Origin: a virus
Taxonomy: Duplodnaviria > Heunggongvirae > Uroviricota > Caudoviricetes
Direction: 5' to 3' (one strand)
Length of the DNA: 18,014 nt
Virus record (IMG/VR): IMGVR_UViG_2778261276_000009
Span: 1-18,014 of that record
Shown: piece by piece, positions 4,888 to 5,112 of the stretch
How positions within the stretch are numbered: position 1 is the stretch's first letter
Layout of the letters: the number at the start of each line of letters is the position of its first letter
Notes under the pieces: generated by a model
Seen by the model: only the letters and a program-made list of their open reading frames with translations
What the model was told of the DNA's origin: nothing
Database searches by the model: none
Translations under genes and position numbers: made by a program

Positions 4888-5049
4888 TGAATTTTGTGAT
4901 GCGGTGCCTGGTGCCTCCAGGTGACGTTAACCAGTTAACAATTAACGCCGGATACAGAGAACCCACCCATAAGAACCAATACGGAAGTCAACTGGCCTTT
5001 TTAACTGTTCCGCGTGCGCTGAGCCGCATTCACCGCATCACAAAATTCA
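4888..5049 (-). repeat. 19-bp perfect inverted repeat flanking the DicF 3' side; candidate RNase III processing stem
   Basis: TGAATTTTGTGATGCGGTG at 4888-4906 and its exact reverse complement at 5031-5049; lies between the DicF-like terminator and the dicB SD. Confidence 0.6.
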
Positions 5050-5053
5050 CTTT

Positions 5054-5112
5054 AAAAAGGACGGACATCAGCCAGCAATGAAACTGATGCCGCCAAAAGG
5101 TAATCAACATGG
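5054..5112 (-). ncRNA. dicF: DicF-like small RNA (ends approximate)
   Basis: Minus-strand RNA UUUUGGCGGCAUCAGUUUCAUUGCUGGCUGAUGUCCGUCC-UUUUU: an approximately 11-bp stem with one bulge followed by a U-run, sharing the UUUGGCGG.AUCAGUUU core with K-12 DicF as I recall it; sits between ydfB-like and dicB-like genes as in Qin. Confidence 0.5.

Follow-up and report, generated by a model that had tools for sequence, protein, structure and literature searches.

By way of DicF, a textbook prophage small RNA (sRNA), the induction of a prophage is coupled to cell division of the host, to sugar metabolism and to virulence in EHEC, for which four copies have been described. DicF is encoded in the Qin prophage of Escherichia coli K-12, upstream of dicB, and its 72-nt form is described, in secondary citations of Faubladier et al. 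1990, as an RNase III processing product. The better documented RNase III cut lies upstream of dicF and yields a 190-nt precursor (PMC10448788). The 3' part of DicF pairs with the ribosome-binding site of ftsZ and the 5' end with xylR (PMC5069750). RNase III itself accommodates about 22 bp of double-stranded RNA (PMC6212723). From the Rac prophage of the same strain, KilS has been described as an Hfq-associated sRNA, validated by Northern blot and RIL-seq, in a paper that makes no mention of DicF (Bar et al. 2021, PMC8175672). A further family of prophage RNAs that bears on the region between dicF and dicB is STnc100/PasD. The Pas sRNA preprint places none of the Pas RNAs at a dicB locus.

Here, the locus that occupies the position of dicF in a viral sequence of 18,014 nt, hereafter called the window, is compared with these systems. 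An original prediction, made from the letters of the sequence, had proposed a DicF-like sRNA with a divergent 5' region and a perfect 19-bp inverted repeat flanking its 3' side. Both elements were followed by homology searches, structure prediction, duplex energies and a survey of related loci.

Genomic context of the locus

On its minus strand, the window contains the dicB (early-left) operon of a lambdoid prophage that resembles Qin. Over 751 nt around the sRNA and the repeat, the sequence is 100% identical to that of E. coli BCE049, for which RefSeq gives the gene order integrase, excisionase, exonuclease, DUF1482, dicB, small ORFs, ydfA and a LexA-family repressor, followed by divergent Cro and YdaT; the dicB operon of K-12 Qin has the same layout. 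Within this repressor-controlled leftward operon, the BCE049 annotation, the alignment with K-12 and the Pfam match to DicB place the sRNA between ydfA/B(/C)-like ORFs and dicB. Alignment of the window with the ydfC-dicF-dicB region of K-12 results in a mean column identity of 89%, with near-identical flanks and a divergence that falls mostly in dicF. Of 5426 complete E. coli genomes, 4730 contain DNA related to the locus, in two places each at the median. In BCE049, the interval from dicB to ydfA carries no annotated RNA gene, and the sRNA is without annotation under any of its matches listed in complete E. coli genomes. The features of the locus are compiled in Table 1.

Table 1. Features of the dicF-dicB region in the window and the evidence by which they were assigned.
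Feature	Coordinates	Strand	Evidence and remarks
dicB, 60-aa cell-division inhibitor	4688-4870	-	Pfam DicB PF05358, 127.5 bits; RefSeq annotation in the identical BCE049 locus
dicB SD region GAGGACG	4876-4882	-	7-bp match to CGUCCUU at 5063-5057 (terminator, 3' half), with which it could pair in read-through RNA
Duplex 3' arm	4887-4906	-	Repeat, fold; ends 4 nt upstream of the dicB SD
Structured domain inside the duplex, 124 nt, four hairpins	4907-5030	-	Sub-threshold STnc100 match, RNAalifold, fold
Duplex 5' arm	5031-5050	-	Repeat, fold; RNase III cut expected near 5040/5039 by homology with 72-nt K-12 DicF
DicF/KilS-family sRNA gene, seed class 'S3', hairpin class 'H3'	5054-5112	-	Rfam, fold, terminator scan, position of K-12 dicF
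Terminator hairpin GGCGGCAUCAG-UUUCAUUGCUGG-CUGAUGUCCGUCC	5059-5094	-	KilS-type stem; loop without the ACUCC of K-12 DicF
Single-stranded 5' region CCAUGUUGAUUACCUUUU, presumed seed	5095-5112	-	Identical in loci with a quite different terminator hairpin
Upstream stem CGAAAGCGCACGG / CCGUGCGCUUCCG (5300-5288 with 5245-5233)	5233-5300	-	Inverted repeat and fold; counterpart of the K-12 RNase III site

A 55-aa ORF on the plus strand (5109-5276), which runs antisense to the operon, was also considered as a gene and is probably spurious, with no Pfam match and an in-frame TAA in K-12. Its start, an SD-like AAAAGG-N8-ATG, lies exactly opposite the sRNA seed. Further along the operon, an 812-aa ORF (1963-4401, minus strand) that is annotated only as 'exonuclease' has the position of RecE (exonuclease VIII), which is found downstream of kilR in K-12 Rac. 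The prophage additionally contains a hok/sok-type antitoxin RNA at 13338-13512 (Rfam sok, 96.2 bits) and a P1/P7 immI-like module at 17280-17475, in which matches to c4-a1b1 (52.2 bits), isrK (79.4 bits) and C4 antisense RNA (74 bits) are arranged in tandem; together they make up an RNA system for antirepressor control, here within a lambdoid prophage.

Anatomy and family of the small RNA

Read along the minus strand from 5112 to 5054, the sRNA has the sequence CCAUGUUGAUUACCUUUUGGCGGCAUCAGUUUCAUUGCUGGCUGAUGUCCGUCCUUUUU. The U-tract at 5058-5054 forms its 3' end, and its uncertain 5' end, at about 5112-5105, is presumably made by RNase E, as for DicF. The predicted fold consists of an 18-nt single-stranded 5' region, a 13-bp hairpin and five uridines (-18.3 kcal/mol, z=-3.2), and a terminator scan recognised the hairpin on the minus strand at 5091-5064. 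At gathering thresholds, Rfam returned nothing in 4888-5112, and matches to DicF and STnc100 appeared only in a permissive search. In this search, the DicF model (RF00039) matched over its full length at 5109-5059 with 28.6 bits (E=4.5e-4), which is below its cut-off of 48; for comparison, K-12 DicF scores 76.7 bits and Rac KilS 39.1 bits with the same model. Overall identity to K-12 DicF is 67-69%, made up of ~50% in the 5' part and 74-77% in the hairpin. The three RNAs are about equally distant from one another, with 66.7% identity between the window sRNA and DicF, 63.9% between the window sRNA and KilS and 63.3% between DicF and KilS.

The 5' portion quoted in the original prediction, AUGUUGAUUACCUUUUGGCGG, is indeed found on the minus strand from 5110 to 5090, and the K-12 sequence that had been given for comparison, UUUCUGGUGACGUUUGGCGG, agrees with K-12 DicF. 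The proposed divergence of the 5' region at a DicF locus was borne out by the K-12 alignment, in which the flanks aligned and the 5' identity was as low as given above. The divergence had been noted for the 5' portion; the hairpin loop differs as well. Similarly, the terminator core that was said to match DicF is a DicF-family hairpin, but it is ~75% identical to that of K-12 DicF and its stem (GGCGGCAUCAG/CUGAUGUCCG) is of the KilS (Rac) type. Judged by its sequence, the RNA is a member of the DicF/KilS family and not DicF proper: the Rfam score is below threshold, the identity to either DicF or KilS is ~65%, and the K-12 pairings with xylR, pykA and manX as well as the ACUCC loop are absent. 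It is rare, lacks annotation and carries a seed of its own.

Target pairing

Target energies were calculated with a window-limited duplex scan and compared with those of shuffled controls. K-12 DicF reached -20.4 kcal/mol with xylR, -22.5 kcal/mol with pykA and -32.0 kcal/mol with manX, values that are well beyond the shuffles, whereas the allele of the window remained at shuffle level with -13.8, -14.5 and -14.4 kcal/mol, respectively. For ftsZ, the scan separates not even the validated pairing of K-12 DicF from shuffles, and unrestricted RNAduplex returned long, meaningless interactions in which known targets and shuffles were not separated. In K-12 DicF, the loop ACUCC(G) faces the SD of ftsZ (CGGAG); the CUCC motif is absent from the whole sRNA of the window. 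The original prediction had assigned the pairing with ftsZ to the 5' portion of DicF, which was mistaken in view of the published arrangement with ftsZ at the 3' part and xylR at the 5' end (PMC5069750). Both regions that are used for pairing in K-12, the 5' part and the hairpin loop, are changed here. Given the different seed and loop, the mRNAs controlled by the sRNA of the window are likely not the same set as those of K-12 DicF.

The inverted repeat as an RNA duplex

The perfect 19-bp repeat that had been reported is present: the reverse complement of TGAATTTTGTGATGCGGTG (4888-4906) lies at 5031-5049, 19 of 19 positions match, and the arms are 124 nt apart. No other site in the window comes within three mismatches of it, with 0 expected from 200 shuffles. 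An additional G·U pair (5050/4887) lengthens the helix to 20 bp (-31.5 kcal/mol). In the leftward RNA, the long duplex that the original prediction placed directly before the dicB SD forms in the minimum free energy (MFE) structure both here, where the fold has z=-5.2, and in K-12. In K-12 Qin, the same helix contains two G·U pairs; in K-12 Rac, where it precedes kilR, the 3' arm accounts for a single bulge and a single G·U pair.

Among related loci, the 19-20 bp duplex is kept in 71 of 71 distinct versions, with energies of -23.5 to -31.5 kcal/mol. The 15-pair consensus helix obtained with RNAalifold contains 65 one-sided substitutions, all of which produce G·U pairs on the dicB-sense strand, and 3 broken cells; such substitutions are A·C mismatches on the opposite strand or in DNA. 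In a gapless count over 19 pairs, 92.3% of cells are paired, the shortfall being due to 24 sequences with a one-base bulge that the gapless register misreads. The long helix shows G·U substitutions and no double compensatory changes, owing to the close relation of the sequences and to a 5' arm that was held fixed as search anchor. With dicB, kilR or a Rha/Ash-family gene next in line, the duplex is present all the same, which indicates that it is part of the spacer module and functions at the RNA level. Rather than being new or specific to the window, the repeat is a conserved feature of the whole dicF-dicB locus family.

Below the 19-bp duplex, the MFE structure of 5125 to 4860 stacks a second helix, formed by the dicB SD region and CGUCCUU. 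A single base, CCGTCC as compared to CCGCCC in locus L182, makes CGUCCUU perfectly complementary to GAGGACG. The folding model thereby suggests that the 3' half of the terminator could pair with the dicB SD in read-through RNA.

RNase III processing

RNase III requires ~20-22 bp of nearly uninterrupted double-stranded RNA, and the helix of the window offers 19 Watson-Crick pairs and one G·U pair. When counted from the annotated 5' end, the 3' end of the 72-nt DicF of K-12 falls at about position 4454 of locus L002, on the tenth position of the 5' arm (4445-4463, 19 nt). This end stays within the 5' arm even if the 53-nt species includes the U-tract. The K-12 product thus agrees with the RNase III processing that the original prediction had invoked for the repeat. 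By homology, the cut expected in the 5' arm of the window (Table 1) would have a staggered partner near 4896-4899. A published RNA-seq table additionally lists an rnc-dependent site at K-12 position 1649470, in the dicF-dicB spacer, which is flagged as known and has 26 reads in Δrnc and 0 in wild type; with its low counts and a location 8 nt beyond the arm, this site is weak evidence.

While the downstream cut of the proposed RNase III account fits, the account left out the upstream cut that gives the 190-nt precursor (PMC10448788). In K-12, the 5' end of the 190-nt species lies at about 4246-4251 of L002, in the 3' strand of the upstream stem. Before the sRNA, some 270 nt of non-coding DNA (window 5115-5400) are near-identical to K-12, strongly structured (z=-3.4) and without an Rfam family, and the stem that is cut by RNase III for the 190-nt precursor is located inside this region. 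In Rac, the same RNA-seq table contains an rnc-dependent site in the kilR-sieB spacer, at about position 3511 of locus L286 (K-12 1418510) and 8 nt upstream of the 5' end of KilS. The 5' end of KilS may, like that of 190-nt DicF, be made by RNase III; the KilS paper proposed an independent promoter instead (PMC8175672).

The enclosed STnc100-like domain

The hairpins of the domain that is enclosed by the duplex span 5027-5012, 5011-4950 (variable), 4949-4923 and 4921-4907 (CCUGG-AGGCA-CCAGG). The domain matches positions 21-154 of the Rfam STnc100 model (RF02076) with 33.7 bits (E=1.5e-5), below the cut-off of 47, and its counterparts in K-12 Qin and Rac score 34.4 and 28.0 bits, respectively. 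As in STnc100, a closing stem P1 and a conserved 3' hairpin, CCNGG-AGGCA-CCNGG beside CACC, are present, and true compensatory changes are found for two inner hairpins in the RNAalifold consensus. A scan for the 3' hairpin motif of the domain recovers many STnc100/PasD-like prophage RNAs. In an alignment-free comparison of 75 distinct elements, P1 extends beyond GGUG/CACC by a mean of 4.0 bp, with varied sequences, as against 2.3 bp for permuted partners; among these elements, 11 bp or more are reached only in dicB/kilR-type loci. These extension statistics indicate that the repeat consists of the P1 of the family (inner 9 bp) and of 10 outer bp, specific to the locus, by which the helix attains RNase III length.

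The central hairpin (window 4944-5003) is a second hypervariable cassette, where mean pairwise identity drops to 0.43-0.61 compared to 0.96-0.99 on either side and at least six different inserts occur, each with its own hairpin. GGUGAAU...UCACCNGGAGGCACCNGGCACC is shared between the spacer domain of the dicF-dicB loci and STnc100/PasD RNAs (loci L003-L122), and the spacer domain also matches the P1-like phages D6 and P7. STnc100/PasD RNAs usually have their own promoter and terminator; they often lie right behind tRNA genes or follow immediately on a promoter of the TTGACA type. A put-like antiterminator RNA, as in HK022 putL/putR, was considered and rejected for the domain: HK022 25-38 kb contains no STnc100-type match and no GGAGGCACC motif above chance.

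Diversity of seeds and hairpins

Allele diversity was surveyed at 126 loci that were anchored on the 5' arm and collected from IMG/VR as well as Escherichia and Shigella genomes. These loci contain 42 distinct alleles, with at least five seed classes and six hairpin classes in varied combinations. Seed S3 (CCCATGTTGATTACCTTTTGGCGG) is paired with hairpin H3 in the window, L001 and L182, and is found, letter for letter, with the unrelated hairpin H4 in L127, L160, L204, L210 and L211. For 84 Qin-type loci, mean pairwise identity is 0.75-0.86 across the sRNA versus 0.93-0.98 in the flanks. At a coverage of at least 80%, the 72-nt allele was detected in 83 of the 5426 complete E. coli genomes (~1.5%); the seed is present in ~4%. 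Of 213 E. coli records with a match to the 72-nt query, about half align over its 5' 36-45 nt only. In the phage collection, no record reached 90% identity over 271 nt. A scan of genome contigs with 18-mers yielded mostly chance matches in unrelated phyla, and the locus was carried only by the Escherichia/Shigella matches.

Tentatively, the dicF slot could be viewed as a swappable 'seed cassette' in an invariant scaffold of upstream RNase III stem, terminator and downstream RNase III stem, in which Escherichia prophages exchange seeds and hairpins independently. S3 would then be a third sRNA beside DicF and KilS, with its own host targets, and double RNase III cleavage would free the STnc100-like domain as a stable RNA. 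We regard this extension as speculative, possible rather than probable.

Proposed explanation and alternatives

Taken as a whole, the locus is probably explained by a DicF/KilS-family sRNA with a new seed, combined with a read-through RNase III helix before dicB. This explanation is built on the anatomy, homology, conservation, strand-specific substitutions and lost K-12 pairings that were observed here, and it takes RNase III and RNase E processing from the K-12 literature. The sRNA (5112 to 5054) would be cut or terminated out of the polycistronic transcript, and its single-stranded seed, Rho-independent terminator and U-tail would provide an Hfq-type architecture. Upon read-through of the terminator, the repeat arms would pair into a helix of 19-20 bp that closes the 124-nt multi-hairpin domain and abuts the dicB SD. 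This helix would serve as the substrate of the RNase III cut that in K-12 yields the 72-nt DicF, separating the sRNA from the dicB mRNA and leaving the latter with a leader of ~25-30 nt. We infer that the RNA is processed in the strain of the window, depends on Hfq and has new targets, as well as any influence on the translation of dicB.

The sRNA element is a good intrinsic terminator, no other part of the locus varies as much as its 5' region and no target was predicted for it in this analysis, all of which would suit an intra-operon attenuator, in which hairpin and U-tract limit dicB expression and the 5' region drifts neutrally without any trans-acting function. Neutral drift is at odds with a seed, S3, that remains unchanged while the hairpin is swapped for an unrelated one, and the reverse also occurs; moreover, DicF and KilS, the two characterised occupants of the slot, are both Hfq-bound trans-acting sRNAs. 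We hold an attenuator to be improbable, and give no better chance to the proposal that the RNA is simply DicF and still inhibits ftsZ, doing the same job despite the sequence differences. Position, downstream dicB and a common GGCGG..AUCAGUUU core are the same in both RNAs, and a 6-nt AGUUUC is complementary to GAAACU just before the ftsZ AUG, but the ACUCC opposite the ftsZ SD is absent, the xylR, pykA and manX pairings are lost, and the RNA is as distant from DicF as KilS is (66.7% vs 63.3%).

For the repeat, a mainly structural or translational role has a somewhat better, though still low, probability: it could be the closing stem of an STnc100-like domain that has a function of its own, or act together with the CGUCCUU/GAGGACG helix as a clamp that hides the dicB SD in read-through RNA. 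The inner 9 bp do correspond to stem P1 of STnc100, P1 exceeds its permuted partners across 75 distinct elements of varied sequence (mean 4.0 vs 2.3 bp) and the dicB SD is paired in the MFE structure. On the other side, the 10 additional bp through which the helix reaches RNase III length are confined to dicB/kilR-type loci, and an RNase III product mapped for K-12 ends inside the helix. Such a role is compatible with the sRNA and RNase III helix proposed above and does not compete with them. A function of the repeat as DNA, i.e. as a protein-binding site, cruciform or recombination site, is highly improbable. What might invite this reading is the location of the perfect 19-bp repeat at a mosaic boundary, where exchangeable modules meet, but the arms are 124 bp apart and 65 of 65 one-sided changes give G·U on the dicB-sense strand and A·C in DNA or on the other strand.

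Comparison with known systems

DicF of K-12 Qin (RF00039, b1574) occupies the same slot upstream of dicB, and in both RNAs a single-stranded 5' region precedes the terminator and the U-tail. On either side, the two loci are near-identical, and the flanking sequence contains the RNase III stem upstream as well as the 19-bp duplex downstream, which differs in being all Watson-Crick over 19 bp in the window and in containing two G·U pairs in K-12. The inverted repeat itself adds nothing new; the locus represents a known processing scaffold with changed target-pairing sequences, and natural alleles with other seeds occupy the same scaffold as DicF. Provided that these alleles are active, they escape annotation by Rfam, and a 'dicF copy number' given for pathogens exaggerates their functional redundancy.

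KilS (b4833; L286 3406-3503, minus strand) of K-12 Rac is a positional and structural paralogue of DicF with the same terminator base. In the same relative position, it carries its own seed and has the stem GGCGGCAUCAG/CUGAUGUCCGCC in common with the window; it is followed by the same duplex with its enclosed domain and then by a gene for a cell-division inhibitor. KilS differs in its seed (GUGUGUAGUCC), its loop and its next gene, which is kilR and not dicB. With KilS as a paralogue of DicF, each followed by an RNase III stem and a division-inhibitor gene, the two prophages would share one model for the co-production of an sRNA and a toxic small protein.

STnc100/PasD RNAs (RF02076; Zhu et al. 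2026, preprint) share with the enclosed domain the GGUGAAU... 5' end, the UCACCNGGAGGCACCNGGCACC 3' hairpin, P1 and a variable central hairpin. They differ in hairpin 1 and are stand-alone RNAs of late regions with their own promoter and terminator and a short P1, whereas the domain of the window is operon-internal and closed by a 19-bp P1. 

The leader of lambda N is said, in work by Kameyama et al. from 1991, to be an RNase III processing site in a phage early leader. There, too, a helix of ~20 bp separates a regulatory RNA element, located upstream, from the SD that serves an early-left gene, and cleavage uncouples the RNA element from the gene and resets the leader; any counterpart of this effect at dicB is putative. 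The lambda structure is a simple hairpin, whereas the helix of the window is long-range and encloses 124 nt.
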